From: Sulfurospirillaceae bacterium
GTDB lineage: Bacteria; Campylobacterota; Campylobacteria; Campylobacterales; Sulfurospirillaceae
Reading direction: 5' to 3'
Length of the DNA stretch: 64,000 nt
NCBI GenBank assembly: GCA_033723415.1
Contig: JAWVXD010000001.1
Span: 320,001-384,000, forward strand
The notes under the pieces are model-generated. The model was not told the DNA's origin. It searched no databases and was given only the letters and a program-made list of their open reading frames with translations. The translations under genes and the position numbers were made by a program. This document shows positions 3,083 through 20,389 of this stretch, piece by piece; within the stretch, counting starts at the first letter, position 1; each line of letters opens with the position of its first letter.

Positions 3083-3976
3083 TTATTTCTTTTTAATTTT
3101 CCTTGCTGATCTAGAATCCATTGAAAATACGATAAGAGCAAGCCATATCAAAGCAAAAGTCAGGAATTTTTTATGATCAAATGGCTCATGATAAACAAAA
3201 ATTCCAAGTAGAAAAGAGATGCTTGGGGCGATATATTGAGCAAAACCAAGCTTTGTCAGAGATATTCTTGTAGCTGCAGCATTGAACCATAAAAGAGGCA
3301 CCACGGTTATAAACCCGGCACTTATCAAGATCAGTGAAATATAATCAAATGAAAAATCAAATTTATTTTGTGATGTATGCACTAGATATGCAAAGTACAA
3401 AAGTGCAAATGGCAATATAAGCAAGGTCTCTATAAATAATCCTGAAACAGATGGTAGAGAAATTTTTTTTCTAAGCATTCCATAAAATGCAAATAATGAA
3501 GCTAAAGACAAAGATACAAGAGGAATTGAACCAACAGATATCAATTCGTTTAGAATTGCGAGTCCAGCGAGTGCTATGGCTATCTTTTGTAGTTTTGATG
3601 GAATTTCATCAAAAAATATTATGCCAAGAATTATACTGAGAATAGGATTGATATAGTACCCCAAGCTTGCTTCTGTGATCATATTGTGCGAAACAGACCA
3701 TATAAATATTAGCCAATTTGATGAAATCAATACAGAAGTGATCATGAGAATTTTTAGTTTATGCCAATCCTTCAAAATTAACTTGACCTGCGCTGATTGT
3801 TTGCTGTATACGATCAGTATTGAAAGAAAAACAACCGACCAAAAAATTCTGTGCACCAAAACTTCAGATGCTAGTACGGAGCTTGTAAGCTTAAAATAAA
3901 TAGGCACAAGACCCCAAAAAATAAATGCAGCCAGTGCGTATAATATACCTTTTCCCTCTTCATTAGCAGTTTGCAA
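3083..3976 (-). CDS. rarD: RarD / EamA-family transporter
   Basis: WGLVPIYFK, EASLGYYINP, QYIAPS motifs; likely TTG start at 3976 after AAGGA (ORF track start 4003). Confidence 0.88.
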   Translation of the reverse strand: MQTANEEGKGILYALAAFIFWGLVPIYFKLTSSVLASEVLVHRIFWSVVFLSILIVYSKQSAQVKLILKDWHKLKILMITSVLISSNWLIFIWSVSHNMITEASLGYYINPILSIILGIIFFDEIPSKLQKIAIALAGLAILNELISVGSIPLVSLSLASLFAFYGMLRKKISLPSVSGLFIETLLILPFALLYFAYLVHTSQNKFDFSFDYISLILISAGFITVVPLLWFNAAATRISLTKLGFAQYIAPSISFLLGIFVYHEPFDHKKFLTFALIWLALIVFSMDSRSARKIKKK

Positions 3977-4080
3977 AGAAATCCTTAAAATTTTTTTGGA
4001 CATTTTACTATTGTTTTCTTAATTCTAAAGTTTAAAACTGTATAATGCAAACACTAAATTGAAGTAGAGGTAAATTGATT

Positions 4081-5451: not shown

Positions 5452-5468
5452 TTTTTCTACAAGATAGC

Positions 5469-5504
5469 GGGATATGTTCACATTAGAGATCGTGAACATA
5501 TCCC
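5469..5504. terminator. Stem-loop after DAHP synthase gene (putative terminator), left edge of accessory block
   Basis: Perfect 13-bp inverted repeat GGGATATGTTCAC-N10-GTGAACATATCCC. Confidence 0.6.
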
Positions 5505-5544
5505 AAAAACTACTTTACGAGCAGTGATAGGAGCTTTGCCCTAT

Positions 5545-6510
5545 ATGAAAAGATTTTTTTTGGCGATTGTTATATTGTCAGGCATTTTATTTGCAAGCGA
5601 TCATTACCCCTCAAAGCCCATCAATTTTGTCGTTGGATTAGGCAAAGGAGGTAGTGCTGATCGTATGGCCCGCAATATGGGTATTTTTCTAGAACAAGAA
5701 CTCCATACGCCGATTCATATCATCAATAAAAGTAACAATGCCTCTTTAGATGCTGCCAATTATGTTTTATCGCAACCACCTGATGGTTATACGGTTTTTG
5801 TTTCTTCCTTTTCTCCATACCTTATCAATACAATTGTGACCGGCAAAGCTAGGTATTCGTTGGATGATTTTGCATTTATCAATTTGCAATGGTTTGACTA
5901 TGATCTGTTCTTGGTTGACAAAAATTCTAAGATCAAATCAATTATGGGACTGATTCATCAAATCAAAGAACATCCGGGATCTATCAGAGTTGCAGTTGTA
6001 TATCAATCAAGCGGTCATTTGATCATGAAATTATTGCTAAAAACATTTAAAATACCTCTGAGCAGTATTAGATTTGAATTTTTTAAAGGAGGCAAGCTGG
6101 CACGAGAAGCATTATTGAAGTCTAAAGCTGATTTACTAGTGATTTCAGCACAAGGCAGTGAGCGATATAGGAAAGAGATCAAACCTTTAGCAATCGTATC
6201 AAACAAAAAATCTAGAAGATGGGATGCTCCGACACTAAATCATGCCATATCAAAAAGCTATATGCATATTCCAGTGCTCAATGGACCAATCAAAGGGTTT
6301 GCAGTCTCTAAAAAATTCAAAAAAAAGTATCCAAAAAGATACTTGATATTAGAAAATGCTATCAAAAAAGTATTGGCTGAAGTTAGAGTTCAAAAAATGT
6401 TAAAAGAGAAACATATCGGATCAGTTTGGATAGGAAGCAGAACATCTACGAAAATATTAAAAGATCAGTATGACTTTTTTGAGAAGCATAAGGATCTTTT
6501 AAAAGATTAA
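5545..6510 (+). CDS. Tripartite tricarboxylate transporter substrate-binding protein (TctC/Bug family)
   Basis: Signal peptide then YPSKPINFVVG..GGSADRMAR and PPDGYTV motifs; ATG 5545 after GGAG. Confidence 0.8.
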   Translation: MKRFFLAIVILSGILFASDHYPSKPINFVVGLGKGGSADRMARNMGIFLEQELHTPIHIINKSNNASLDAANYVLSQPPDGYTVFVSSFSPYLINTIVTGKARYSLDDFAFINLQWFDYDLFLVDKNSKIKSIMGLIHQIKEHPGSIRVAVVYQSSGHLIMKLLLKTFKIPLSSIRFEFFKGGKLAREALLKSKADLLVISAQGSERYRKEIKPLAIVSNKKSRRWDAPTLNHAISKSYMHIPVLNGPIKGFAVSKKFKKKYPKRYLILENAIKKVLAEVRVQKMLKEKHIGSVWIGSRTSTKILKDQYDFFEKHKDLLKD

Positions 6511-6512
6511 AT

Positions 6513-7883
6513 TTAACTTTCGGGGTATGGAAATATGATAGAAATCTTTAGTCCATTGTCATTGCTTGCCAAAACTTCTGCATTATGCAGTATTGCTATT
6601 TGTTTGACTATGCTGAGTCCCAAACCGGAACCGTTTTTCTTTAAATCCACTCTATAATATCTCTGGAAAATATTTTCCAAGAGCTCTTCTTTGACACCTT
6701 TTCCTTCATCTTTGACGTTTAGCCAAATCGCGTTGTTATGTCTTTGTATAGAAAGTGTGATTTTCCCCATTGGATTGCCGTTTTTATCAACAGCATAATG
6801 TAAGGAATTGTTGATAATATTGTCAAGCATACTCTCTAATATAATAGGATCTGTTTTTATAAATACTTTTTCATCTAAATCTTCAAATTCAAATTCAAAA
6901 CCTTTATGATATATTCTTGGCGCAGTTTTAACGCAATAATCTTTACAAATTTGATTTAAATTTGCCTTTTTAAGTCTTGTCAGATTGATCGTATTAGGGT
7001 TTGTCTTCGCGTAAAGCAGAAGCTGCTCGATAATATGTGACATATCATTGATGTGTGCGTTTAAAACGATGTACTTTTGATCTTTCTTTTCAAAAAATTC
7101 TTCAAGCTCCATTTTCATCTCAGCCAAAGGAGTTCTTAGTTGATGCGAGACATCAGAGTTAAACTGCTCTATATATTCGATATTATCTCTGCTTCGCTCT
7201 AGCAAAATATTGATGCTGTTAACCACATCCTCGATCTCTTTTGGAGCTTGAAATTCGAAAGGAGTCAAGTCTCGTTTGTCTCTTTGGCGGATACTTCTTT
7301 TGAGTGATACCAACGGTTTTAATCCGACATTGACTGCAATCAATGTGATGATAATAGTAAAGAGCGAAACCAAGCTCATGATGATTAAAGTTGTATTGAT
7401 AAGTTCTCTGATGTTTTCCGCCCGCTCATAATAACTCTCTGCGATCGAGATGTATGCGGTGTACACTTTCCCGGAGCTATTGATAGTGGTTTTGTACGAG
7501 ACGACTCTTAACTTTTCACCGTCATATATCTTGTCATAAAATCTTTTATTTTGTTTTGCTAAAAGATTTTTATTGAATAAAAATTGATACCCGATCAATA
7601 GATCACCTTTATCATCGACTACCGAATAATACATTAAACCGTTTTTTGTCGGTGAAAGATAATCAATCGAGAAATTTTGAAAATCAATAATCAGTTTTCC
7701 ATTTTCTACACCGATGTAGTCTTCTATACTTTGGGCAGATGCAAAGAGTCTATTGTCAAAAAAAGTGTTGACCTTAGCTCTTAGAAAGCTGTTGATATAG
7801 ATGAAAAGAAAAAAAGAAAAAAGGCTCAGCGGAACGATAAGCCATAAAATTAGACGTGATTTGACAGAAGGTGCTTGTACCAT
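6513..7883 (-). CDS. tctE: Sensor histidine kinase, TctE-like
   Basis: Two TM helices, FDNRLFASA (2CSK_N-like), DVSHQLRTPLA H-box, NIINNSLHY, DEGKG, GSGLGLSIV. Confidence 0.8.
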   Translation of the reverse strand: MVQAPSVKSRLILWLIVPLSLFSFFLFIYINSFLRAKVNTFFDNRLFASAQSIEDYIGVENGKLIIDFQNFSIDYLSPTKNGLMYYSVVDDKGDLLIGYQFLFNKNLLAKQNKRFYDKIYDGEKLRVVSYKTTINSSGKVYTAYISIAESYYERAENIRELINTTLIIMSLVSLFTIIITLIAVNVGLKPLVSLKRSIRQRDKRDLTPFEFQAPKEIEDVVNSINILLERSRDNIEYIEQFNSDVSHQLRTPLAEMKMELEEFFEKKDQKYIVLNAHINDMSHIIEQLLLYAKTNPNTINLTRLKKANLNQICKDYCVKTAPRIYHKGFEFEFEDLDEKVFIKTDPIILESMLDNIINNSLHYAVDKNGNPMGKITLSIQRHNNAIWLNVKDEGKGVKEELLENIFQRYYRVDLKKNGSGLGLSIVKQIAILHNAEVLASNDNGLKISIIFPYPES

Positions 7884-7884
7884 A

Positions 7885-8541
7885 TTAGTTCATTATGTAA
7901 CCTAATCCACGGACTGTTTTTATATTGATAGAAGAACCTAGTTTTTTTCTCAATCTAGAAATATAAGTTTCAACAGCTGTAGGATTAAAATCATCATCAA
8001 TTGTAGTGATATGTTCCACTATATTTTCTTTGCTGACTATTGCATTTTGATTTTGTAGTAGGTATTCAAATATTTTTAATTCTCTTTTGCTAAGTTCGAT
8101 GATAGCTTCATTTTTTGTTAATATGAAAGTATTGGTATCATATACCAAATCGTTGTATTTGATCGTGTGTGTTAGGTTGTTTTTACTACGTCTAAGCAAG
8201 GCATGGACTCTGGCGATGACTTCTTCCATCTCAAATGGTTTACATAGATAATCATCCGCTCCGGTATCTAAGCCTAATATCCTTTGATCTAGTTGGTCTC
8301 GAGCCGAAATCACGAGAATCGGCAAATTTCGCTGTGATTTTCGCAGCTTCTTGATAACATCAATACCATCAATGATAGGTAACCCCAAATCCAAGATCAA
8401 TAAGTCATAAGTCGTCATCTCTAAGGCATAAAGACCAGCCTCTCCATCGCCAAAAAGATCCACTAAGAAACCGATCTCTTTTAGCTTTTTATAGATACCG
8501 TTTGCGAGCGTTTCGTTGTCTTCGATTAGTAATATTTTCAT
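7885..8541 (-). CDS. tctD: OmpR-family response regulator, TctD-like
   Basis: ILDLGLP, GADDYLCKPF, YISRLRKKL, TVRGLGY; paired with the kinase. Confidence 0.8.
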   Translation of the reverse strand: MKILLIEDNETLANGIYKKLKEIGFLVDLFGDGEAGLYALEMTTYDLLILDLGLPIIDGIDVIKKLRKSQRNLPILVISARDQLDQRILGLDTGADDYLCKPFEMEEVIARVHALLRRSKNNLTHTIKYNDLVYDTNTFILTKNEAIIELSKRELKIFEYLLQNQNAIVSKENIVEHITTIDDDFNPTAVETYISRLRKKLGSSINIKTVRGLGYIMN

Positions 8542-8802
8542 GTTTGAATTATATCATAAAATTTCGCAGCGATATTCTTTAGTTTGTTACGATTTTACTT
8601 CATTTTTATGATTTTTAAATAGAAGAAATATAATGCAAGTTTGATGACAGATTTCAATGCTACGATGATTTTCAAGAGAACAAATAACTTTGCATATGAG
8701 ATTTAAAATCAAGAAACCGGTGATGAGGAGAACCGGTTAAAGCAAAATTTCAAAAATGCAAAAATCAGTGTTTCTTACTAAAAAATTCAAAGGAGAATTG
8801 AG

Positions 8803-9783
8803 ATGAAATTTTTTAAATCCGTTGCAATTTTTGCAATGTCCTCATGTTTTTTGATGAGCGCAAGTTATGGCTCTCAAATCAATATTACATTCCCACTACA
8901 TGTGGCACCTAAAAATGCTAGAACAGTAATGCTCAAAGATTATGTTGACCAAGTCAGTAAGTTTTCAGGCGGAAGGATTAAAGTCACACTCTATCCGGGA
9001 GATCAACTTTATAATACCGCATCAGGACTTAGAGCATTAACACAAGGTTCAGTTCAAATGATGGAGGCCCCAAACGGTGCGTATTTAGCGTATGATAAAA
9101 TATTTAATCTTATAGAAATTCCATTTGTTTTTAACAATAGTCAAAAATACTACAACTTTTTATACGGAGCACCCGGTGAAAAAATACTAAAAAGTCTTGA
9201 AAAAAGTAATATGCACGGTATCACTTTTGCAGATGAAGGTCCTATGATCATCGCGACCAAAGATAGACTTCTTGCAATTCCATCAGATTTTAAAGGCTTA
9301 GTGGTTCGTACATCTGGACATAAACTGGTCGAAGATTCTCTTAGATTACTTGGTGCATCAACCACTAAAATGTCACTTAGCGAAGTTTACTCAGCAGCAC
9401 AACAAAATGTTATCAATGCGGTTTATACAACGATCAGTGCCTATAAAGCACAGCATTTATATGAAGTTATGCCTTATGTAACATTATGGCCGGGTCGTGG
9501 TGCGTATGTTTGGGTTACTTCCGATAAATTGTGGAATAGTCTTGATGCGTATGATAAACACACGATCAGCACAGCTGCAAAACAAGCAGCACTAGAGTAT
9601 GATTATCATGCTTGGCACAATAAAGACAAAGATATTGCCGAGCTTTCTAAAAAAGGTGTGAAATATCATGAATTGACAGAGAGCGAACTCAAAACGATAC
9701 ACTCCAAAATCATGCCGCTTTACAACGACTTGAAGAAAAAATTCGGTTCAGAAATTATCGACAGTATAGTTTCCGGAAAATAA
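8803..9783 (+). CDS. dctP: TRAP transporter substrate-binding protein
   Basis: Signal peptide; LYPGDQL, IPFVF, DFKGLVVR, LSEVYSAAQQNVI; followed by Q and M subunits. Confidence 0.88.
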   Translation: MKFFKSVAIFAMSSCFLMSASYGSQINITFPLHVAPKNARTVMLKDYVDQVSKFSGGRIKVTLYPGDQLYNTASGLRALTQGSVQMMEAPNGAYLAYDKIFNLIEIPFVFNNSQKYYNFLYGAPGEKILKSLEKSNMHGITFADEGPMIIATKDRLLAIPSDFKGLVVRTSGHKLVEDSLRLLGASTTKMSLSEVYSAAQQNVINAVYTTISAYKAQHLYEVMPYVTLWPGRGAYVWVTSDKLWNSLDAYDKHTISTAAKQAALEYDYHAWHNKDKDIAELSKKGVKYHELTESELKTIHSKIMPLYNDLKKKFGSEIIDSIVSGK

Positions 9784-9792
9784 TAATCAATC

Positions 9793-9827
9793 TATCTTGA
9801 CTGGACATTATGGTTTCAGTCAAGATA
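9793..9827 (+). other. Intercistronic stem-loop between dctP and dctQ (likely mRNA-stabilising or attenuating hairpin)
   Basis: Perfect 11-bp inverted repeat TATCTTGACTG-N13-CAGTCAAGATA. Confidence 0.6.
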
Positions 9828-9862
9828 ATCTTAATATCAAAATTACAATAGGAGCGCCGTTT

Positions 9863-10396
9863 ATGATTGCAACAAAAAAACAAGTTGAAAATTCTATTTT
9901 GGGTAAATTATTGAGTTTCAACCTCAAAATAGCAAGTTTAGAATTAAGGCTAGCAAGCATCATGATTGTGATTGCAAGTTGCTTATCACTATATACTATT
10001 ATTGTTCGAAATTCCGGGCATAGTACTGCTGATTGGACTGTTGATTTACCTATTGCTCTTGTTAGCTGGGCTATCTTCATAGGCAGTGGTGCCAATTTTG
10101 TTTACAAGAGTCATATCAACACCGATTTTTTTTTAGAAAAATTGCCTTTTAAATTGAAAAAAACGATTTTGATCTTTGTTAATTTTGTATTGCTTGGTAT
10201 GTTTATCTTTATCGTACATTACAGTATCATCGCAACGGAATTGTTTATAAAAACAGGAAATAGACTATATGAGATGTTTAACACACCTGTATATATTGTG
10301 TTTCTGATTTTGCCGATCAGTGTGGTCATATGGTGCGTACACGTTTTGATAGACATTGTAGATATTTATTGTTCAACTGAAAAAGAGGGAGCTTAG
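9863..10396 (+). CDS. dctQ: TRAP transporter small permease
   Basis: About 4 TM segments, W..FIG...HINTDF motif; ATG 9863 after AGGAG. Confidence 0.85.
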   Translation: MIATKKQVENSILGKLLSFNLKIASLELRLASIMIVIASCLSLYTIIVRNSGHSTADWTVDLPIALVSWAIFIGSGANFVYKSHINTDFFLEKLPFKLKKTILIFVNFVLLGMFIFIVHYSIIATELFIKTGNRLYEMFNTPVYIVFLILPISVVIWCVHVLIDIVDIYCSTEKEGA

Positions 10397-10400
10397 TATT

Positions 10401-11705
10401 ATGGAAATTATCATGACGTTACTGCCGTTTGTTTTTCTTATTGTTTTGATGACTTTGAGTGTACCTGTAGGATTTTCACTCATCCTCTCAAGTATATTGG
10501 AGTTGTTGGTTACTGGCAATTATTTCTTTTTTCAAGAAATCCCTACAACACTTTATTTTTCGCTTGATCATTTTACATTTCTAGCGATACCGTTTTTTAT
10601 CTTATCGGCGGAGCTTCTTTCAGGAGGTAAAGTGATAGATCTATTATTTGCCTTAGCTTCGGTACTTTTAAAACGAGTTCCAGGCGGAGTCGGTGTTGTG
10701 ACTATCTTTGTGAGTATGATGCTCTCATCAATACAAGGCTCGAGTGCCGCTACTGCTGCAGCTCTTGGCAAAATCGGAACGGATGGTATGGGAAAAGAAG
10801 GATATGACCGAGGATTTGCTGCTTCTTTGATCGCAGCATCTGGAGGTTTGGCTATCATGATACCCCCAAGTATAGCGATGATTATCTATGGTACGTTATC
10901 TAATACTTCGATTGGAAAGTTATTTTACGGCGGGATTTTACCAGGAGTCATTATCGGCACTGCATTGATCGCTTATACTATGATCGTTGCTTATAAAAAC
11001 AAATACGGGGTAGAACATGAAGCGATAAGCTGGAGAGCAATTTTTATATTGCTAAGAAACTCAATCCCACTTTTATTCTTCCCTGTCATTGTTTTGTTTG
11101 GTTTTTATACCGGAAAATTTACCGCTACCGAGATTGGAACGATCAGTGCATTTTATTCTGCCTTTATCGGTGCTTTTATTTACAGAACGATCAATATGAA
11201 AAATATTTTTCAAATTATCGACCGATCAAGTAAAGTCACGGTTTCTATCTTTATCATTATTGCCGGAGCGATTTTATTTCAACATATTTTGGTGTTGTCC
11301 GGTTTTGTGAATACAATTTTAGGTGTCATTCATCAAGCCTCACTCTCACGCTTTGAGTTTTTAATTATCATCAGCGTGATCATGTACTTCCTTGGTATGT
11401 TTATGGAAGGTGTCGCACTCAATGTCTTAACCACACCAATTTTAGCACCTATCGCCTTGACATTGGGAATCGATCCTGTGCATTATGGCATCATCTTAGT
11501 TCTAAATATTGAAATTGCACTCATTTCTCCGCCTGTCGGACTCAATCTCTTTGTGCTTTCAGGTGTTACAAATATCAAACCTGAAGCCATGTATAAAGCA
11601 GTATGGCCTGTTATCTTGGTACTTGTGGCTTGTTTGGTTTTACTAATCGCTTTCCCACAATTGACGCTTTTCTTGCCTCATTTGTTGACAAGTACTCATA
11701 TGTAA
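10401..11705 (+). CDS. dctM: TRAP transporter large permease
   Basis: LAIPFFIL, GSSAATAAA, IPPS, FTATE, DPVHYG, SPPVGLNLFV motifs. Confidence 0.92.
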   Translation: MEIIMTLLPFVFLIVLMTLSVPVGFSLILSSILELLVTGNYFFFQEIPTTLYFSLDHFTFLAIPFFILSAELLSGGKVIDLLFALASVLLKRVPGGVGVVTIFVSMMLSSIQGSSAATAAALGKIGTDGMGKEGYDRGFAASLIAASGGLAIMIPPSIAMIIYGTLSNTSIGKLFYGGILPGVIIGTALIAYTMIVAYKNKYGVEHEAISWRAIFILLRNSIPLLFFPVIVLFGFYTGKFTATEIGTISAFYSAFIGAFIYRTINMKNIFQIIDRSSKVTVSIFIIIAGAILFQHILVLSGFVNTILGVIHQASLSRFEFLIIISVIMYFLGMFMEGVALNVLTTPILAPIALTLGIDPVHYGIILVLNIEIALISPPVGLNLFVLSGVTNIKPEAMYKAVWPVILVLVACLVLLIAFPQLTLFLPHLLTSTHM

Positions 11706-11767
11706 GTTTTACCGAGTGTAAAATTTACGTTATTTAATAAATTGAATTATATTATCAGGGGGAACAG

Positions 11768-12835
11768 ATGAATGATCTTAAAAAAATAAAATGTATGTTG
11801 TTTCGTGGGGGAACGTCAAAGGGTGCATTTTTTTTAGCCAATGACTTACCTACGGATATAAAACAGAGAGATGAATTGCTGCTGAAAATCATGGGATCTC
11901 CTGATCCTAAGCAGATAGACGGTATCGGAGGAGCCGCTTTTGTGACTAGTAAAGTTGCCATATTAAGCAGTTCCAAAAGAGAAGGTATCGATGTAGATTA
12001 TAAATTTGTGCAAGTGATGGTCGATGAGCCGATCGTGGATGATAAACCAACTTGCGGTAATATCCTCACTGGAGTCGGAGTTTTTGCAATTGAGCGGGGT
12101 TTAGTGACCATTCAAGACGGTGTTACGCCGGTTAGGATTTACGACATCAACACCGGTGCTACTATCTCACAGATCATACAAACGCCTAATCGCTGTATCC
12201 AATACAAAGGAGATACAAGTATCACCGGAGTTCCCGGTACTGCAGCTCCGGTTGAGATGTACTTTCAAAATATCGCAGGAGGCAAAACCGGACATTACTT
12301 ACCTACAAAAAATCCTATAGACATCATCGACGGTATTGAGGTGACATGTCTTGATATCAGTATGCCTATCGTATTTGTCAAGGCAGAGGATGTCGGTATC
12401 AGCGGTTATGAAACACCCGGTTTGCTTGATAAAAATGAAGCGTTATTTGAAAAATTGATCGCGATACGAGAAAAAGCTTCTTTGATCATGGGATTAGGAC
12501 CTGCAAAAGGCAATGTCATTCCTAAAATTGTCGTGATCAGTCCTCCAAAAAATGACGGCGATATCAATATACGATATTTCACGCCTCTAAGCTGTCATCC
12601 GACAGTCGCAGTATCGGGAGGTTTTTGTATCTCTGTAGGCTGCTTTATAGAGGGAACTTTGATGAATCAAATCCATCCTATGAAATTAGCCGTAGGCGAT
12701 TATACGATCAAAATAGAAAATCCTGGCGGTACGACACCTATTAGCGTTAGTTTTCCGAGCCTTGATATTAGTGAAGTGAGCGGTAAGACGATCAGAACTG
12801 CAAGGTTGCTATTTGATGGAGTAGTCTATGCATGA
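11768..12835 (+). CDS. PrpF-family isomerase (aconitate / 4-oxalomesaconate tautomerase-like)
   Basis: RGGTSKG, GSPDPKQIDGIGG, TSKVAI, CGN, GVPGTAAP motifs. Confidence 0.88.
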   Translation: MNDLKKIKCMLFRGGTSKGAFFLANDLPTDIKQRDELLLKIMGSPDPKQIDGIGGAAFVTSKVAILSSSKREGIDVDYKFVQVMVDEPIVDDKPTCGNILTGVGVFAIERGLVTIQDGVTPVRIYDINTGATISQIIQTPNRCIQYKGDTSITGVPGTAAPVEMYFQNIAGGKTGHYLPTKNPIDIIDGIEVTCLDISMPIVFVKAEDVGISGYETPGLLDKNEALFEKLIAIREKASLIMGLGPAKGNVIPKIVVISPPKNDGDINIRYFTPLSCHPTVAVSGGFCISVGCFIEGTLMNQIHPMKLAVGDYTIKIENPGGTTPISVSFPSLDISEVSGKTIRTARLLFDGVVYA

Positions 12836-14210
12836 TATTATCGTTATCGGAGGGGGCAATGCTGCTTTATGTGCAGCTATCAGCGCAGCAGAAGAGGGCA
12901 AAAGTGTCTTGTTGTTGGAATCTGCTCCAAAACTGTGGCGAGGCGGAAATTCCCAACACACGAGAAATATGCGCGTATCTCATGAAGAACCGACTGAAAC
13001 CTTGGTGGAGCGCTATCCATTTTCTGAATTTTATGAGGATCTCCTCAAGGTCACCAAAGGTGAGACCGATACAGAATTAGCCACTTTGATGATCCAAAAG
13101 TCTGTAGAGCTATTACACTGGATGAACCGTCATGGAATTTACTTTCAGCAAAGTATCTCAGGGACTCTCAGTTTATCTCGAACCAATGCTTTCTTTTTGG
13201 GTGGTGGTAAGACGTTGGTCAACAGAGAGTATCAAATAGCGCAAGATCTAGGTGTCGAAGTTTTGTATGAACATGAAGTTGAGCGCGTCAATATGCAAGA
13301 TGATCACGTCCAATCCCTTGATGTCATGACACCGCAGGGAGTTAAAAATTTCCAAGCTAAAGCATATATTGCAGCAAGCGGCGGGTTTGAATCCAATCGC
13401 GAATGGCTTAAAGAAGCATGGGGAGAAAAAGCAGATAATTTTCTAATCCGAGGTACTCGCTTTAATCAAGGAAAAGTGCTAAAAAGCTTACTAGAACAAG
13501 GCATACAGCCTGTCGGCAAGCCTGAACAAGGGCATGCTGTCGCCATTGACGGGCGAGCGCCGCTTTATGATGGCGGTATTGTCACGAGACTTGATTGCGT
13601 ACCTTTTGGGATTGTACTAAATAAAAACGGTAAAAGATTTTATGATGAGGGAGAGGATTTTTGGCCAAAACGATATGCGATCTGGGGAAGACTCGTAGCA
13701 GCACAACCCGATCAAGTCGGCTATGTCATCATCGACAGTAAAAGTTTTGATCTCTTTATGCCTTCCGTCTTTGCACCGATAAAAGATGAGACGATAGAAG
13801 GATTGGCAGAGAAATTAGATCTTCCGGTTGAGTCCGTGCTTCAAACCATCAATGAATATAACGACCACGTAAAAAAGGGTGATTTTGACACAACGATTTT
13901 GGATGGATGTCAAACAGAGGGCTTGGAAGTAGATAAAACAAACTGGGCGAGAAAGATCGACACTCCGCCGTACTATGCCTACATGTTACGCCCCGGCATC
14001 ACGTTTACCTATCTTGGCGTCAAAATAGATACCAATGCACAGGTTTATATGCGTGATGGAAGAGCGGTAGCAAATCTATTCGCAACCGGTGAGATGGTTG
14101 CAGGTAATATCTTAGGACAAGGTTATTTGGCAGGTACCGGTATGGCTATAGGAGGCGTATTTGGAGTGATAGCAGGGAAAGGGGGCAGTCAATGTTGCAA
14201 GATAGTATAA
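12828..14210 (+). CDS. tcuA: FAD-dependent tricarballylate dehydrogenase
   Basis: GGGNAALCAA, RGGNSQHTRN, GTLSLSRTNAFFLGGGK, DEGEDFWPKRYAIWGRL, PGITFTYLG. Confidence 0.93.
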   Translation: MHDIIVIGGGNAALCAAISAAEEGKSVLLLESAPKLWRGGNSQHTRNMRVSHEEPTETLVERYPFSEFYEDLLKVTKGETDTELATLMIQKSVELLHWMNRHGIYFQQSISGTLSLSRTNAFFLGGGKTLVNREYQIAQDLGVEVLYEHEVERVNMQDDHVQSLDVMTPQGVKNFQAKAYIAASGGFESNREWLKEAWGEKADNFLIRGTRFNQGKVLKSLLEQGIQPVGKPEQGHAVAIDGRAPLYDGGIVTRLDCVPFGIVLNKNGKRFYDEGEDFWPKRYAIWGRLVAAQPDQVGYVIIDSKSFDLFMPSVFAPIKDETIEGLAEKLDLPVESVLQTINEYNDHVKKGDFDTTILDGCQTEGLEVDKTNWARKIDTPPYYAYMLRPGITFTYLGVKIDTNAQVYMRDGRAVANLFATGEMVAGNILGQGYLAGTGMAIGGVFGVIAGKGGSQCCKIV

Positions 14211-15307
14211 AACAAACACCACAAGATAACTTGCAAGAAGCAAGACGTATCATGGAGATCTGTAACGCGTGTCGTTACTGCGAAAGTTTATGCCCGGTTT
14301 TCCCGGAGATCACACGATTTAGAACGTTTAGTGATCATGATCTAAACTATTTAGCAAATCTTTGCCACAACTGCAAAGGATGTTACTACGGGTGTCAGTA
14401 CTCACCTCCTCATGAATTTGCCATCAATGTTCCAAAAACGTTGGCGGAAGTGAGAGTGGATAGTTATGCCAGATATGCATTTCCTCAGGTTTTGGGTAAA
14501 TTGTTTGCAAAAAATGGAACATTTGTCAGTATCATGATAGCCTTGTGCATCGCATTGATCTTTGTAGTAGGATCAATATTTAGCACTACGGGGTCATTTT
14601 TTGCAACTCACAGCGGCGAGGGGTCTTTTTATCAAGTAATACCAAGTTTTCTCATGATCGGTGTGCCGATGATCATCGGTGTTTATGTTTTGGCAGCTTT
14701 TTATTTTGGATTTCAACAATTTTGGTTAGAAAGCGGCAATGAAATAGGTGAGCTTAAATGCGGCGCCCTTTGGAAGTCGGCTTTTGGTGACATCATGACC
14801 TTAAGACATTTAGACGGCGGCGAACACGGACACGGATGCACCCATATGGATGATCGCTTTAGTCACTCAAGAAGATGGTTTCATCAAGCCACAATGTTTG
14901 GATTTTTCTTTGCGATCATCTCTACAAGTATTGCGGCGATTGATGAGCATATTTTAGGTTTGGCGGCGCCCTATGGATTTACTTCGCTGCCTGTGATCTT
15001 TGGCACGTTAGGCGGCGTGATGATGGTGATCGGCACGATTGGACTTGCCGCGATTAAAACCAAAGCAGATCCTGCTCCGATGGCAAAGCAATTACTGGGT
15101 ATGGATTATTCATTTATCGTTTTATTGTTCTTGGTGAGTTTGTCCGGCTTGCTTTTATTGGCTTTACGAAATACGGCTTTGATGCCTTTGACGTTATGCA
15201 TCCATCTTGGCTTTGTTTTAGCGTTTTTCGTAACCATGCCTTATAGTAAGTTTGTGCATTTTCTCTATAGACTAGGTGCCTTGCTCAAATTTGCCAAATA
15301 CAAGTGA
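14192..15307 (+). CDS. tcuB: Tricarballylate utilization 4Fe-4S membrane protein
   Basis: CNACRYCESLCP and CHNCKGCYYGCQYSPPHEF Fe-S motifs; C-terminal TM domain ending PYSKFVH. Confidence 0.92.
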   Translation: MLQDSIKQTPQDNLQEARRIMEICNACRYCESLCPVFPEITRFRTFSDHDLNYLANLCHNCKGCYYGCQYSPPHEFAINVPKTLAEVRVDSYARYAFPQVLGKLFAKNGTFVSIMIALCIALIFVVGSIFSTTGSFFATHSGEGSFYQVIPSFLMIGVPMIIGVYVLAAFYFGFQQFWLESGNEIGELKCGALWKSAFGDIMTLRHLDGGEHGHGCTHMDDRFSHSRRWFHQATMFGFFFAIISTSIAAIDEHILGLAAPYGFTSLPVIFGTLGGVMMVIGTIGLAAIKTKADPAPMAKQLLGMDYSFIVLLFLVSLSGLLLLALRNTALMPLTLCIHLGFVLAFFVTMPYSKFVHFLYRLGALLKFAKYK

Positions 15308-15325
15308 TTTGAAACCATTAAAAAG

Positions 15326-16381
15326 ATGAATATGAAAAATATTGCTAAAGTACTACTCACACTCTTTATAGCCCTTATTGGAGCAGTAATATTTGAATAT
15401 TTTAAATTACCTCTTCCTTGGTTAATAGGACCTATCGTTATCATATCTATTGTGGTAAAACTTTTTCCGACATTGCCAATGGAAGAGCCGAAAATTTTCT
15501 CTTCTCCTGCAAAGGCAATACTTGGCTTGACGATAGGAAGTGCCTTTGTGCCTGCAATTTTAAATCATCTAGGCAGCTACATGATCAGTTTGTGTATTGT
15601 CGTACCTTTTATTTTGGTGATAGCCGTTGGAGGTACTTTTTATTATTGGAAATTTCTAGGGCTTGATCGTATGACGGCTTTTTTCAGTGCGATGCCTGGG
15701 GGTATCTTGGTCATGGTTTCCATCGGCGAAGAGATGGGTGCCAATGTCTATAAAGTGACCTTGATGCAAGCCACAAGGCTCCTTTTGGTGATCTTTTCAC
15801 TGCCGCTTATCATCAAACACTGGGCACATATTGATCTTAGTTCCAATGTAACATTTACGCCTCCGCTGAGAGATGTTTCTTTGGTTGACTTGGCTTTGTT
15901 GGCGATTCTTGGCATCGTTGGAGTTTGGATTTCAAAAAAATGGAAAATTTCAGGAGGAAACCTCCTGATTCCTATGGTGCTGAGTGCGGTTTTTTATTTT
16001 AACGGTTGGATCGTCTCTAAACCGCCGGATGAAATTATCAAGCTGGTTCAGATTATCCTTGGCTCATCAATCGGTTTTTCATTTTATGGGGCCCCTATAA
16101 AAGACATCATCAAGACCATTGTTTCGACTATCGGGTATTTTATCCTTTTGCTTTCAACCTGTTTCCTTGCGATCATGCTGGTGCATGAGATCACCGACAT
16201 CGATCTGCTCTCGATCATCTTGGCTTTTGCGCCGGGCGGGCAGGCTGCGATCAATCTGATAGCCATAGTGGTAGCGGCAAATATCCCTTATGTTGCACTG
16301 CATCATGTTTTAAGGATTTTTTTGGTCATGGCGGTTTCACCGATCTTTGCCAAAAAGTTTAAGTCTGAAGAGATAATTTAA
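15326..16381 (+). CDS. AbrB-family (AidB regulator-like) membrane protein
   Basis: PLPWLIGP; duplicated halves with MPGG/APGG motifs; many TM segments. Confidence 0.8.
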   Translation: MNMKNIAKVLLTLFIALIGAVIFEYFKLPLPWLIGPIVIISIVVKLFPTLPMEEPKIFSSPAKAILGLTIGSAFVPAILNHLGSYMISLCIVVPFILVIAVGGTFYYWKFLGLDRMTAFFSAMPGGILVMVSIGEEMGANVYKVTLMQATRLLLVIFSLPLIIKHWAHIDLSSNVTFTPPLRDVSLVDLALLAILGIVGVWISKKWKISGGNLLIPMVLSAVFYFNGWIVSKPPDEIIKLVQIILGSSIGFSFYGAPIKDIIKTIVSTIGYFILLLSTCFLAIMLVHEITDIDLLSIILAFAPGGQAAINLIAIVVAANIPYVALHHVLRIFLVMAVSPIFAKKFKSEEII

Positions 16382-18322: not shown

Positions 18323-19279
18323 ATGCAACAAGTATATGACGTTATAATTATAGGTAGTGGCCCGGGTGGCGTTGGTGCAGCTATAGAATCAAAAGTTCTA
18401 GGGCTTGAAAAAATTCTTGTTATTGAAAAAGGCGATAACCATTCTCAGACAATTAGAAAATTTTATAAAGACAATAAACGAGTAGATAAAGATTATCAAG
18501 GACAAGAGGTTGATATCAAAGGAAATGTTCAATTTCTAGACGGTACAAAAGAGAGTACTCTTGATTACTTTGATCAACTCATAGATAATGAAGAAATAGA
18601 CGTAGTTTTTAATAGAGAAGTAGAAAAAGTAGAAAAACAAGATGGATTATTTGCAGTGACGACATCTAAAGCAGGATATTTAGCTAAAAATGTGATAGTA
18701 GCTATAGGACGCATGGGAAAACCAAATAAACCTAGCTATAAAATTCCGCCTTCAATCAAACAAAAAGTAAATTTTAATCTAGAGAGATGTACACATGGAG
18801 AAAAGATATTAGTCGTAGGAGGAGGAGATTCTGCATCTGAATACGCTGTTTATCTTGCAAAAGAAAATACTGTAACGTTAAATTATAGAAAAACTGAATT
18901 TTCTAGATTAAACAGTATCAATGCAAAAGAGTTAGCCGATGCAAACGGAGAAGAGAGATTGCGTTTAAGACTAGGTGTAAATATACTAAGTCTTGAAAAT
19001 GAAGGTGGATCGGTTAAAGTAACTTACGATGACGGATATAGCGTTGTTTACGACAGAATTATTTATGCAATTGGCGGGACAACTCCTGTAGATTTCTTGA
19101 AAAAATGTGATGTAGAATTAGATGAAAACAAACAACCGATACTAGATCAAAATTTTGAAACTAACAATAAAGGTTTATACATAGTCGGAGATTTGGCAGT
19201 TGACAGTGGCGGTAGCATTGCTATAGCATTAAATCACGCTTTTCATGCCGTAACTCATATGCTGCAAAAGGATAAGTAA
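18323..19279 (+). CDS. TrxB-like FAD/NAD(P)H oxidoreductase (flavodoxin:quinone reductase FqrB-like), copy 1
   Basis: GSGPGG FAD motif, VGGGDSA NADPH motif, no redox CxxC; HSQTIRKFYK..KRVDKDY segment recalled from Campylobacterota FqrB. Confidence 0.75.
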   Translation: MQQVYDVIIIGSGPGGVGAAIESKVLGLEKILVIEKGDNHSQTIRKFYKDNKRVDKDYQGQEVDIKGNVQFLDGTKESTLDYFDQLIDNEEIDVVFNREVEKVEKQDGLFAVTTSKAGYLAKNVIVAIGRMGKPNKPSYKIPPSIKQKVNFNLERCTHGEKILVVGGGDSASEYAVYLAKENTVTLNYRKTEFSRLNSINAKELADANGEERLRLRLGVNILSLENEGGSVKVTYDDGYSVVYDRIIYAIGGTTPVDFLKKCDVELDENKQPILDQNFETNNKGLYIVGDLAVDSGGSIAIALNHAFHAVTHMLQKDK

Positions 19280-19311
19280 GCTTTATTCTTTAGAGATATT
19301 TTATATATTTA

Positions 19312-19360
19312 TAAAGCCAATATAAAAAAGGATAAATTTTGCCTTATTATATTGGCTTTA
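19312..19360. terminator. Long stem-loop between the two oxidoreductase paralogues
   Basis: Perfect 14-bp inverted repeat TAAAGCCAATATAA / TTATATTGGCTTTA with inner AAGG/CCTT pairing. Confidence 0.55.
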
Positions 19361-19432
19361 AAAAAAATTTTACTGCTTTATCAACATAACTAAGGTAAAA
19401 TCCCAACGATTATACAAGACAAGGAGTTTAAA

Positions 19433-20389
19433 ATGCCTCAAATATATGATTTGATAATAGTTGGTGGCGGTCCTGGTGGCATAGGGGCTGCAGTAGAGTC
19501 AAACGTGCTTGGCATAAAAAATATACTTTTAATTGAAAAAGGGGACAATCACTCTCAGACAATTAGAAAATTTTATAAAGAGCATAAAAGAGTAGATAAA
19601 GACTATAAAGGTCAAGTTGTTGAACTAGCAGGAAGTATAGAATTTAAAGACGGCACAAAAGAGAGTACTCTTGATTATTTTGATTTTCTCCTAGACAATG
19701 AACAGATAGACGCTGTATTTAACAGTGAAGTAGAGAGTATTGAAAAATCTGACGGCACCTTTTTAGTTACGACTTCAAATGCCGGATATGTTGCAAAAAA
19801 CGTAATAGTTGCGATCGGTCGCATGGGGAAACCAAATAAACCCAGCAATTATAAAATACCGCCTTCAATCACACAAAGAGTAAATTTCAACCTTGATAAA
19901 TGCGTTAAGGGAGAAAAGATCTTAGTTGTAGGAGGAGGAAATTCTGCTGCTGAATATGCAATTGAATTAGCCGAAAACCATATAGTTACATTAAATTATA
20001 GAAGAACAGAGTTCAATAGACTAAACGATAAAAACCTGGAAATGTTAAACGAATACAATGGACACGAAAAACTAAGACTTAGATTAGGATGTGACATCAC
20101 ATCATTGGAAAATGAAGAAGGACTTGTAAAAGTAAATTTTACTGATGGTTACTACACAATATACGATAGAGTTATATACGCGATCGGTGGAACTACTCCT
20201 GTTGAATTTTTGAGAAAATGCGGAATTGAGATGGATGAAAAAAATGAGCCGATATTTGATGAAAATTATGAAACTTCTACAAAAGGATTATTTGTAGGCG
20301 GCGACATCGCTGTAAGAAACGGTGGAAGTATCGCTATAGCTCTAAACCATACTCATCATATTGTTACTTATATTTTAAATAAAATATAG
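19433..20389 (+). CDS. TrxB-like FAD/NAD(P)H oxidoreductase (FqrB-like), copy 2
   Basis: GGGPGG and VGGGNSA motifs; colinear paralogue of 18323..19279. Confidence 0.75.
   Translation: MPQIYDLIIVGGGPGGIGAAVESNVLGIKNILLIEKGDNHSQTIRKFYKEHKRVDKDYKGQVVELAGSIEFKDGTKESTLDYFDFLLDNEQIDAVFNSEVESIEKSDGTFLVTTSNAGYVAKNVIVAIGRMGKPNKPSNYKIPPSITQRVNFNLDKCVKGEKILVVGGGNSAAEYAIELAENHIVTLNYRRTEFNRLNDKNLEMLNEYNGHEKLRLRLGCDITSLENEEGLVKVNFTDGYYTIYDRVIYAIGGTTPVEFLRKCGIEMDEKNEPIFDENYETSTKGLFVGGDIAVRNGGSIAIALNHTHHIVTYILNKI

Follow-up and report, generated by a model that had tools for sequence, protein, structure and literature searches.

The subject of this study is a block of about 11 kb that sits between aroF and an ABC-ATPase gene on contig JAWVXD010000001.1 of a Sulfurospirillaceae bacterium, within a 64,000-nucleotide stretch hereafter called the window, whose positions serve as coordinates throughout (L and G numbers label compared loci and genomes). 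Judged from its genes, the locus is a mosaic island for tricarballylate and aconitate uptake and oxidation, with known chemistry and a rearrangement of a common kind. We consider it fairly probable that the inserted block imports these acids via a tripartite ATP-independent periplasmic (TRAP) transporter to feed the tricarboxylic acid (TCA) cycle, with the TctE/TctD two-component system sensing its signal through a stand-alone TctC protein, here termed TctC'.

In the proposed scheme, TctC' loaded with a tricarboxylate would contact the periplasmic domain of TctE, on the model of BctC and BctE of Bordetella. Phosphorylated TctD would next bind the tandem repeat observed at 8634-8650, switching on a dctPQM-isomerase-tcuAB-abrB transcript, and the acid would enter through DctPQM. 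TcuA and TcuB, assigned by family membership, would then oxidize tricarballylate to cis-aconitate with electrons passing to quinone, while a YbhH-like isomerase would convert trans- into cis-aconitate for AcnB, which is encoded elsewhere in the genome and scores above its family cut-off. AbrB would act as an accessory carboxylate carrier.

The layout given in a preliminary description, tctDE divergent from dctPQM-prpF-tcuA-tcuB-abrB with a convergent tctC, is borne out by open reading frames and family matches, with all ten genes intact at the coordinates described earlier. At the heart of the block are tcuA (12828-14210, plus strand), for a tricarballylate dehydrogenase dependent on flavin adenine dinucleotide (FAD), and tcuB (14192-15307, plus strand), for its 4Fe-4S membrane partner. 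TcuA exceeds the cut-offs of both NF006130 (667.9 against 369 bits) and TIGR02485 (565.6 against 372.55) and carries the FAD-binding glycine motif GGGNAA at residue 8; TcuB exceeds TIGR02484 (409.2 against 246.6), stays below a second model, NF011607 (389.4 against 524), and displays two CxxCxxCxxxC motifs. The genes from dctP to abrB are closely packed, with successive gaps of 79, 4, 62, -8, -19 and 18 bp. As previously noted, the locus is devoid of LysR and major facilitator superfamily (MFS) genes; genome-wide, there is no match to the TcuC-type MFS model, and the three LysR genes all lie outside the locus.

The orphan TctC' and the candidate TctD promoter

The most unusual part of the locus, left unexplained in the preliminary description, is tctC' (5545-6510, plus strand), encoding a periplasmic binding protein of the TctC/Bug family (Pfam TctC, 36.4 bits). 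It is the sole TctC gene of a 2.43 Mb, 100% complete genome in which the TctA and TctB models both return zero matches, and it has kept an intact frame, signal peptide and GGxxD motif. The gene ends 2 bp from the stop codon of the convergent tctE (6513-7883, minus strand), a sensor histidine kinase with a 2CSK_N periplasmic domain, HisKA and HATPase_c. Next to it lies tctD (7885-8541, minus strand), an OmpR/PhoB-family response regulator whose best NCBIfam match is TctD. Homologues of this pair of 2CSK_N kinase and OmpR-type regulator, at 55-74% identity, flank tctA operons.

The arrangement recurs. All 15 tctE genes recovered by a search of the family with the sensor domain adjoin a TctC gene of the same subfamily, 11 of them tail-to-tail and four with the tctC heading an adjacent tctA operon. 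Across 38 full-length tctE genes, from loci partly chosen through TctC, a convergent tctC was present in 27. In a first tree the 12 convergent TctC copies all fell into one clade (96/95), sister to the transport copies; in a larger tree 22 of 26 grouped together (Shimodaira-Hasegawa-like approximate likelihood ratio test, SH-aLRT, 85, not starred), the remaining four representing a separate recent duplication. Convergent copies are found beside tripartite tricarboxylate transporter (TTT) importers, beside divalent anion:sodium symporter (DASS) importers (L153, L154) and, here, beside a TRAP importer. Structure prediction of the TctC'-TctE complex lends weak support to a contact, with a score of 0.58 against 0.01 for the best control, a contact agreement between runs of at least 13% and a predicted local distance difference test (pLDDT) of at least 88 for the partners; of 157 solved pairs 116 attained the mark applied, as did 2 of 215 mismatched ones, and among the pairs attaining it those scoring up to 0.60 were only 18 solved pairs together with both mismatches. 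The modelled contact and the recurrent arrangement suggest that TctC' is likely a sensing-only co-receptor of TctE. A literature search that did not extend to supplements returned no description of a sensing-only TctC.

Control by TctD was addressed with a motif learned from 27 regions upstream of the tct operons of relatives, comprising 22 distinct sites and excluding the window. A single motif was present in all 27 regions, in which an extended -10-like element follows a pair of hexamers spaced 11 bp apart. Tandem repeats with this spacing are typical of OmpR/PhoB-family activators (PMC4513871), and TctD of Pseudomonas aeruginosa is described as activating its tct operon (PMC4513871; bioRxiv 2022.07.01.498397). 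With the resulting 33-column matrix, the best site in the entire genome is window 8634-8666 (plus strand; 32.3 bits, runner-up 18.1), located in the 261-bp divergent gap between tctD and dctP, with 169 bp from motif start to the dctP start codon. Ten column-permuted matrices peaked at 18.2 bits on the six largest contigs. Since the best genome-wide site lies ahead of dctP, control of the dctP operon by TctD, which would bind this candidate promoter, is likely, congruent with the earlier proposal of a tricarballylate/aconitate uptake and oxidation unit under TctDE rather than LysR control, which thereby gains a new candidate TctD box.

Held-out sites were detected directly upstream of tcuA in L142 (25.4 bits) and L145 (27.4 bits). 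Expressed as a degenerate International Union of Pure and Applied Chemistry (IUPAC) pattern, the motif occurs in 8 of 61 genomes of the family, exactly those with this TctE sensor domain, and is absent from the other 53, all without the domain. One position of the pattern had been loosened so that the window site would fit, and 8 of its 13 sites are training sites; the weight of the comparison therefore rests on the 53 absences and on four new sites in other genomes. A generic scan for sigma-70 promoters and terminators was uninformative, yielding 48 promoter-like sites against 37.1 +/- 6.1 in shuffled sequence.

Further features were noted around the motif. The leader at 8667-8802 is longer than in most training loci and contains a short inverted repeat near 8716-8739 that is missing in G359, a genome of a second family discussed below. 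An extended -10-like element (8548-8556, minus strand) precedes the tctD start codon by 6 nucleotides, without a Shine-Dalgarno sequence ahead of the gene, and a variant of the element is present in G359; the tctD transcript is possibly leaderless. Several motif copies per locus occur in L030, L275 and L276, including a divergent pair between tctC and a LysR gene, which suggests that TctD may also control the LysR gene facing tcuAB there. L278-L281 show an independent recent duplication, in which a second tctC stands behind tctA, faces tctE and, in L280 and L281, has a motif copy of its own.

The DctP clade and competing readings

Uptake would fall to the products of the contiguous genes dctP (8803-9783, plus strand; solute-binding protein), dctQ (9863-10396, plus strand; small subunit, ATG start, with an upstream TTG at 9797 in the list of open reading frames) and dctM (10401-11705, plus strand; large subunit, TIGR00786 365.8 against a cut-off of 268.45). 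DctP exceeds NF037995 (130.6 against 50), remains under TIGR00787 (152.8 against 175.05) and belongs to a small, separate clade. No solved DctP is close, the best PDB match reaching 99 bits and the top fold matches being 17-25% identical, and a fold search with the model (pLDDT 72.8) returned generic DctP matches only, without a ligand. The arginine in the FRIQ/FRVQ strand of solved DctPs has its counterpart in R169, which is invariant in 18 of 18 sequences. Relatives at E <= 1e-30 number 17, and the clade profile retrieves eight 50%-clusters above 200 bits. The closest clade was not found in the 60 other genomes of the family, and plasmids gave no DctP match.

Metagenomes offered 74 loci, of which 24 belong to the DctP clade and seven extend at least 2 kb past dctM. 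The order dctPQM-isomerase-tcuAB recurs in two of these seven, L159 (DctP 56% identical) and L164 (40%), the latter with an interposed gene of the isocitrate/isopropylmalate-dehydrogenase family. Both loci have an isomerase from another PrpF branch, and TcuA there is only 56% identical to that of the window, hinting at a repeated pairing of the DctP clade with isomerase and tcuAB. The clade probably binds several small poly-carboxylates, and the DctP of this locus would likely take a tricarboxylate. No tricarballylate-binding DctP was described in the literature searched, a scope outside which lie the ligand tables of Vetting 2015 and supplements. Genome-wide, 9 DctP-type and 12 DctM-type matches in 2.4 Mb, with no TTT system, portray the host as a TRAP-rich carboxylate scavenger.

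Several observations weigh against the favored reading. TctD is the best of 95 family models for the tctD product, yet its 200.5 bits fall short of the 337 cut-off. The 17-bp repeat alone fails to single out the promoter site (23.0 versus 21.9 bits, permuted maximum 21.0), and only the repeat together with the -10 element discriminates. No promoter motif was found for tctC', which lies outside the operon behind a perfect hairpin (5468-5505), present as a single copy in the genome and marking the left insertion edge between aroF and tctC'. The isomerase misses the cut-off of the 4-oxalomesaconate-tautomerase model NF033377 narrowly (427.7 against 440). G359, 1 of 184 genomes of the second family, carries tctE-tctD-dctPQM and the box with no TctC, TctA or TcuA match, from which it follows that TctC' may be dispensable and that the TRAP ligand may not need TcuAB. 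Finally, five of the seven long clade loci lack tcuAB; the closest metagenome match, L158 (62%), and L160 (53%) adjoin CoA-transferase and IclR genes, with an HMG-CoA-lyase-like gene also beside L158, and L173 lies by a tartrate dehydrogenase gene. In support of the preliminary view of DctP as a possible, little-characterized tricarboxylate receptor, the clade is uncharacterized and linked to isomerase and tcuAB in two distant loci; its specificity and the high affinity proposed earlier are putative. As a separate observation, L158:3363-8770 and L160:297-2213 contain prpB/prpD-like, HMG-CoA-lyase-like, IclR and CoA-transferase genes, possibly a branched-dicarboxylate pathway.

G359 bears on two alternatives. 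It retains tctE-tctD-dctPQM at 77% nucleotide identity over 5.2 kb, with nonsynonymous divergence (dN 0.07-0.17) far below synonymous divergence (dS about 1-3), and the box at 29.2 bits; it may be a remnant or may indicate that TctC' is optional. Directly after dctM, in the position of isomerase-tcuAB-abrB, are restriction-modification-like genes (L289:450-10035; labeled by sequence inspection only). One alternative, which we regard as unlikely, is that TctC' is a leftover of a lost TctCBA system, a passenger beside a TctDE-regulated TRAP/tcuAB operon in which TctE senses the acid directly or via DctP. The intact tctDE-dctPQM module and box without any TctC match in G359 fit this idea, as do the position of tctC' outside the operon and its apparently faster divergence, the best non-self matches among near relatives being 79% for TctC' and 94% for DctP. 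Against it stand the integrity of the frame, signal peptide and GGxxD motif, the convergent tctC of 27 among 38 tctE genes, forming its own clade and found also beside DASS importers, and the weak complex-prediction support for a contact with TctE.

The same module standing alone in G359 is also expected if tctDE-dctPQM is a separate unit to which isomerase-tcuAB-abrB was appended, the TRAP system carrying citrate, cis-aconitate or a branched dicarboxylate rather than tricarballylate. The CoA-transferase, lyase and tartrate dehydrogenase genes next to clade members point the same way, as does the GC content at third codon positions (GC3), higher from prpF to abrB (0.37-0.44) than in dctP (0.29), with tctC' near 0.30, the genome median at 0.279 and its 95th percentile at 0.393; moreover, TctDE of P. 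aeruginosa is described as serving citrate and cis-aconitate (bioRxiv 2022.07.01.498397). That two distant loci pair the same DctP clade with an other-branch isomerase and 56%-identical tcuAB is less easily accommodated, and the locus encodes no further importer, AbrB possibly excepted, leaving us doubtful of this reading.

Regarding the isomerase (11768-12835, plus strand), the label prpF given earlier is apt for the superfamily, not for PrpF proper: the protein scores 170.1 on the PrpF model TIGR02334 (cut-off 440.55), well behind the tautomerase score mentioned above, both below cut-off. Among solved structures it is closest to E. coli YbhH (345.9 bits), followed by LigU (303.4) and PrpF (163.3), placing it in the YbhH/oxalomesaconate-tautomerase branch. 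The mutated positions of the LigU structures 6P3H and 6P3K correspond to K62 and C96 of the enzyme, H277 is also kept, and the residues K73 and C107 are required in Shewanella PrpF (PMC5690661). Known aconitate isomerases are found in the PrpF superfamily (PMC11495376), and the portions of PMC9068703 considered here give no reaction for YbhH. The genome has no AcnD and no LigK match, the search not having covered other gallate or protocatechuate partners. A 2-methylcitrate role was rejected on the low PrpF score and the lack of AcnD, and a gallate role on the sub-cut-off tautomerase score and the lack of a LigK match. Two separate PrpF branches have been recruited to tct/tcu loci. The enzyme likely interconverts cis- and trans-aconitate, which would offer a likely reaction for the YbhH branch. 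Alternatively, the true substrate may be an analogue such as methyl- or homo-tricarballylate or -aconitate, handled by homologues of shifted specificity. The placement of the isomerase in an uncharacterized branch agrees with this, and tricarballylate has been described as hindgut-associated (PMC5473279), in a setting unlike the tidal flat of the best-matching DNA run; TcuA and TcuB scores far above equivalog cut-offs argue for the canonical substrate, and we rank this option as the least probable of those considered.

AbrB (PF05145; 15326-16381, plus strand) was modeled with high confidence (pLDDT 94.1). Its best fold match is CitS (5a1s; Z 20.7, root-mean-square deviation 4.4, 333 aligned residues, 12% identity), with the AspT antiporter at Z 18.2, in line with an earlier prediction of a CitS-like secondary-transporter fold (PMC8396727). 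A role as transcription factor was rejected for this membrane protein, and the model gives reason to view membrane 'AbrB regulators' as possible carboxylate carriers, while the shared fold fixes neither substrate nor direction. The proximity to CitS and an antiporter also suits a reverse pathway of anaerobic aconitate respiration, with TRAP import, isomerization to the cis form, quinol-dependent reduction to tricarballylate by TcuAB and export by AbrB. Rumen bacteria reduce aconitate to tricarballylate, and the family of the host respires fumarate. In addition, the terminal gene of the tct operon in P. aeruginosa, which we take to be of the AbrB family, is described as blocking citrate growth of E. 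coli, an effect that an exporter could have. Conversely, the characterized direction of TcuA is oxidative (Lewis 2006, PMC10468695), a putative high-affinity importer would fit a scarce carbon source rather than a bulk electron acceptor, and AbrB also occurs in tct operons without tcuAB (L144, L147, L148, L150). Such a reverse route seems quite improbable.

Probable mosaic origin of the island

To place the island, tcuAB neighborhoods were mapped by six-frame hidden Markov model (HMM) scans, since longest-frame calling gave wrong frames in high-GC loci; the loci under study also supplied the scan models, of which that for TctE picks up further kinases as well. Of the 401 class genomes, 27 carry tcuB, and among 20 such loci 17 contain a TcuC-like MFS gene (one as a fragment only) and one contains TctE. 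A wider GTDB survey, which turned up at least 599 tcuA loci, covered the 80 best; many of these 80 are truncated by contig ends, and four repeat loci of the class. Within 10 kb it found TctC in 30, GntR in 30, TctA in 15, AbrB in 14, kinase-model matches in 11, PrpF-like genes in 10, TRAP in 8, LysR in 8 and MFS in 6 loci, with MFS and LysR together in none. Therefore, tcuAB is routinely paired with importers and regulators other than MFS and LysR. The survey of tcuA neighborhoods suggested earlier found rearranged loci to be common, and did not find MFS plus LysR together among these 80 loci. Separately, tcuB is broken up or fragmentary in two genomes of the class (L026/L028/L029 in G334 and L027 in G369).

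The closest relatives look different from a tcuRABC operon. In the family, tcuB occurs in 3 of 61 genomes, the host included, and both others associate tcuAB with TctA and a convergent tctC'/tctED, as do five loci of the second family (L030, L275-L277, L284). L142 reads tctC-tctA-abrB-tcuA-tcuB-tctC' facing tctE-tctD, with the same order in L145 up to the contig end, and L284 reads tctC-tctA-isomerase-tcuA-tcuB-tctC' facing tctE-tctD. The TctC' query matched 23 of 151 second-family genomes, and loci from 20 of these were inspected: seven have tctC-tctA-tctB-isomerase-tauE-tctC'/tctED without tcuAB within the fetched DNA, and in four (L030, L275-L277) lysR-tcuAB is inserted in the tct cassette. 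Where abrB would be expected, such cassettes (L268-L277, L282, L283, L030) have a TauE/SafE-like membrane gene, as though the two could stand in for each other as accessory carriers.

The enzymes and regulators of the window share 45-75% identity with their counterparts in L030, L142, L145 and L284, while DctPQM has other relatives. As the closest relatives pair TctCBA with TctDE, it is likely that TRAP replaced a TTT transporter. The original framing as a rewired tcuRABC locus, with TRAP standing in for TcuC, therefore finds no support: no tcuA locus among the 80 combines MFS and LysR, L142, L145 and L284 use TctCBA with TctDE, and what was displaced is TctAB, tctA being missing from the genome. 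Nor is the isomerase an addition to tcuAB, since it travels with the tct transport cassette even where tcuAB is lacking, as in the seven loci above. Historically, an ancestral tctC-tctBA-isomerase-tcuAB-abrB-tctC'/tctED cassette may have exchanged its TTT transporter for TRAP, a swap that would have been possible because sensing had already shifted to the duplicate binding protein.

The insertion itself is visible in same-genus genomes, where aroF abuts the ABC-ATPase gene in two of four loci and 0.6-0.8 kb of other DNA separates them in the remaining two, suggesting arrival of tctC' to abrB as a single block. The gene rarD (3083-4003, minus strand) was rejected as an island member, being located beside aroF also where relatives have no island; RarD has been implicated in growth of P. 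aeruginosa on citrate and aconitate. The best-matching DNA run comes from a tidal-flat metagenome that may be the source itself; one of its contigs covers the entire stretch with zero differences, a check that is not independent. Pieces from two other sediment runs fail to span the locus, and no RNA run was among the matching sequencing runs listed. Beyond the island, at 18323-20389 (plus strand), are two tandem paralogous genes for 318-residue thioredoxin-reductase-like flavoproteins, a label again given by inspection.

More broadly, and tentatively, Campylobacterota may have split the TTT binding protein into transport and sensing-only copies, making TctC'/TctE/TctD with its box a portable sensor for TTT, DASS and TRAP importers that here drives the first tricarballylate/aconitate TRAP receptor; we hold this wider view possible, short of probable. 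If true, it would give orphan TctC/Bug proteins one concrete job. According to one review, kinase activation by a binding protein has been characterized in only about ten cases (PMC9602780), and the locus is a small, testable case for the role of the orphans, as well as a test case for tricarboxylate transport by TRAP receptors. The core chemistry was already known and rearranged tcuAB clusters are common; what is new is a putative signature of TctD promoters in Campylobacterota, together with a recurrent candidate sensing-only TctC that would permit importer swaps and an uncharacterized TRAP clade.

Relation to characterized systems

A literature search without access to supplements found no description of this gene architecture, and its parts have parallels elsewhere. 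In Bacillus velezensis tarRAB, a PrpF-superfamily isomerase and an importer likewise deliver cis-aconitate to the TCA cycle (PMC11495376), a likeness at superfamily level; as far as the source covers it, the importer is of MFS type, the regulator is LysR and there is no TcuAB. E. coli YbhH (PDB 6OTV; ybhD-ybhHIJ), the nearest solved isomerase structure, has neighbors that encode a tricarboxylate transporter and a hydratase, both putative, with a DASS-type carrier and LysR control unlike here. In Acinetobacter baylyi, the corresponding system has an MFS carrier, an isomerase in the periplasm and regulators of the LysR type. The tcu/aconitate locus of this organism similarly ties the use of tricarballylate to that of cis- and trans-aconitate (Baugh 2024, as cited in PMC12338516).

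The TctDE/opdH-tctCBA-PA14_54580 system of P. aeruginosa resembles the island in that a divergent tctDE activates a tricarboxylate uptake operon ending in an accessory membrane gene, and its tct promoter also has a TctD motif (bioRxiv 2022.07.01.498397, PMC4513871), the likeness being one of presence. In contrast, it comprises a TTT transporter and, in the portions of these sources considered, neither tcuAB nor an isomerase. Salmonella enterica tcuRABC shares the adjacent, overlapping TcuA flavoprotein and TcuB Fe-S partner and the presumed product cis-aconitate (PMC10468695, PMC5473279), whereas the present locus lacks TcuC and TcuR, appears to rely on TRAP uptake and TctDE control, and adds isomerase, AbrB and TctC. 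Finally, in Bordetella pertussis BctDE-BctCBA, the proposed role of a TctC-family protein is to signal to a TctE-type kinase, which in turn activates an uptake operon, and signaling through BctE needs citrate-loaded BctC (Antoine 2005, as reviewed in PMC5812351 and PMC9602780). According to these accounts BctC both transports and signals, whereas TctC' exists without TctA or TctB anywhere in the genome, and here the importer under putative TctDE control is a TRAP system in an operon that includes catabolic genes.

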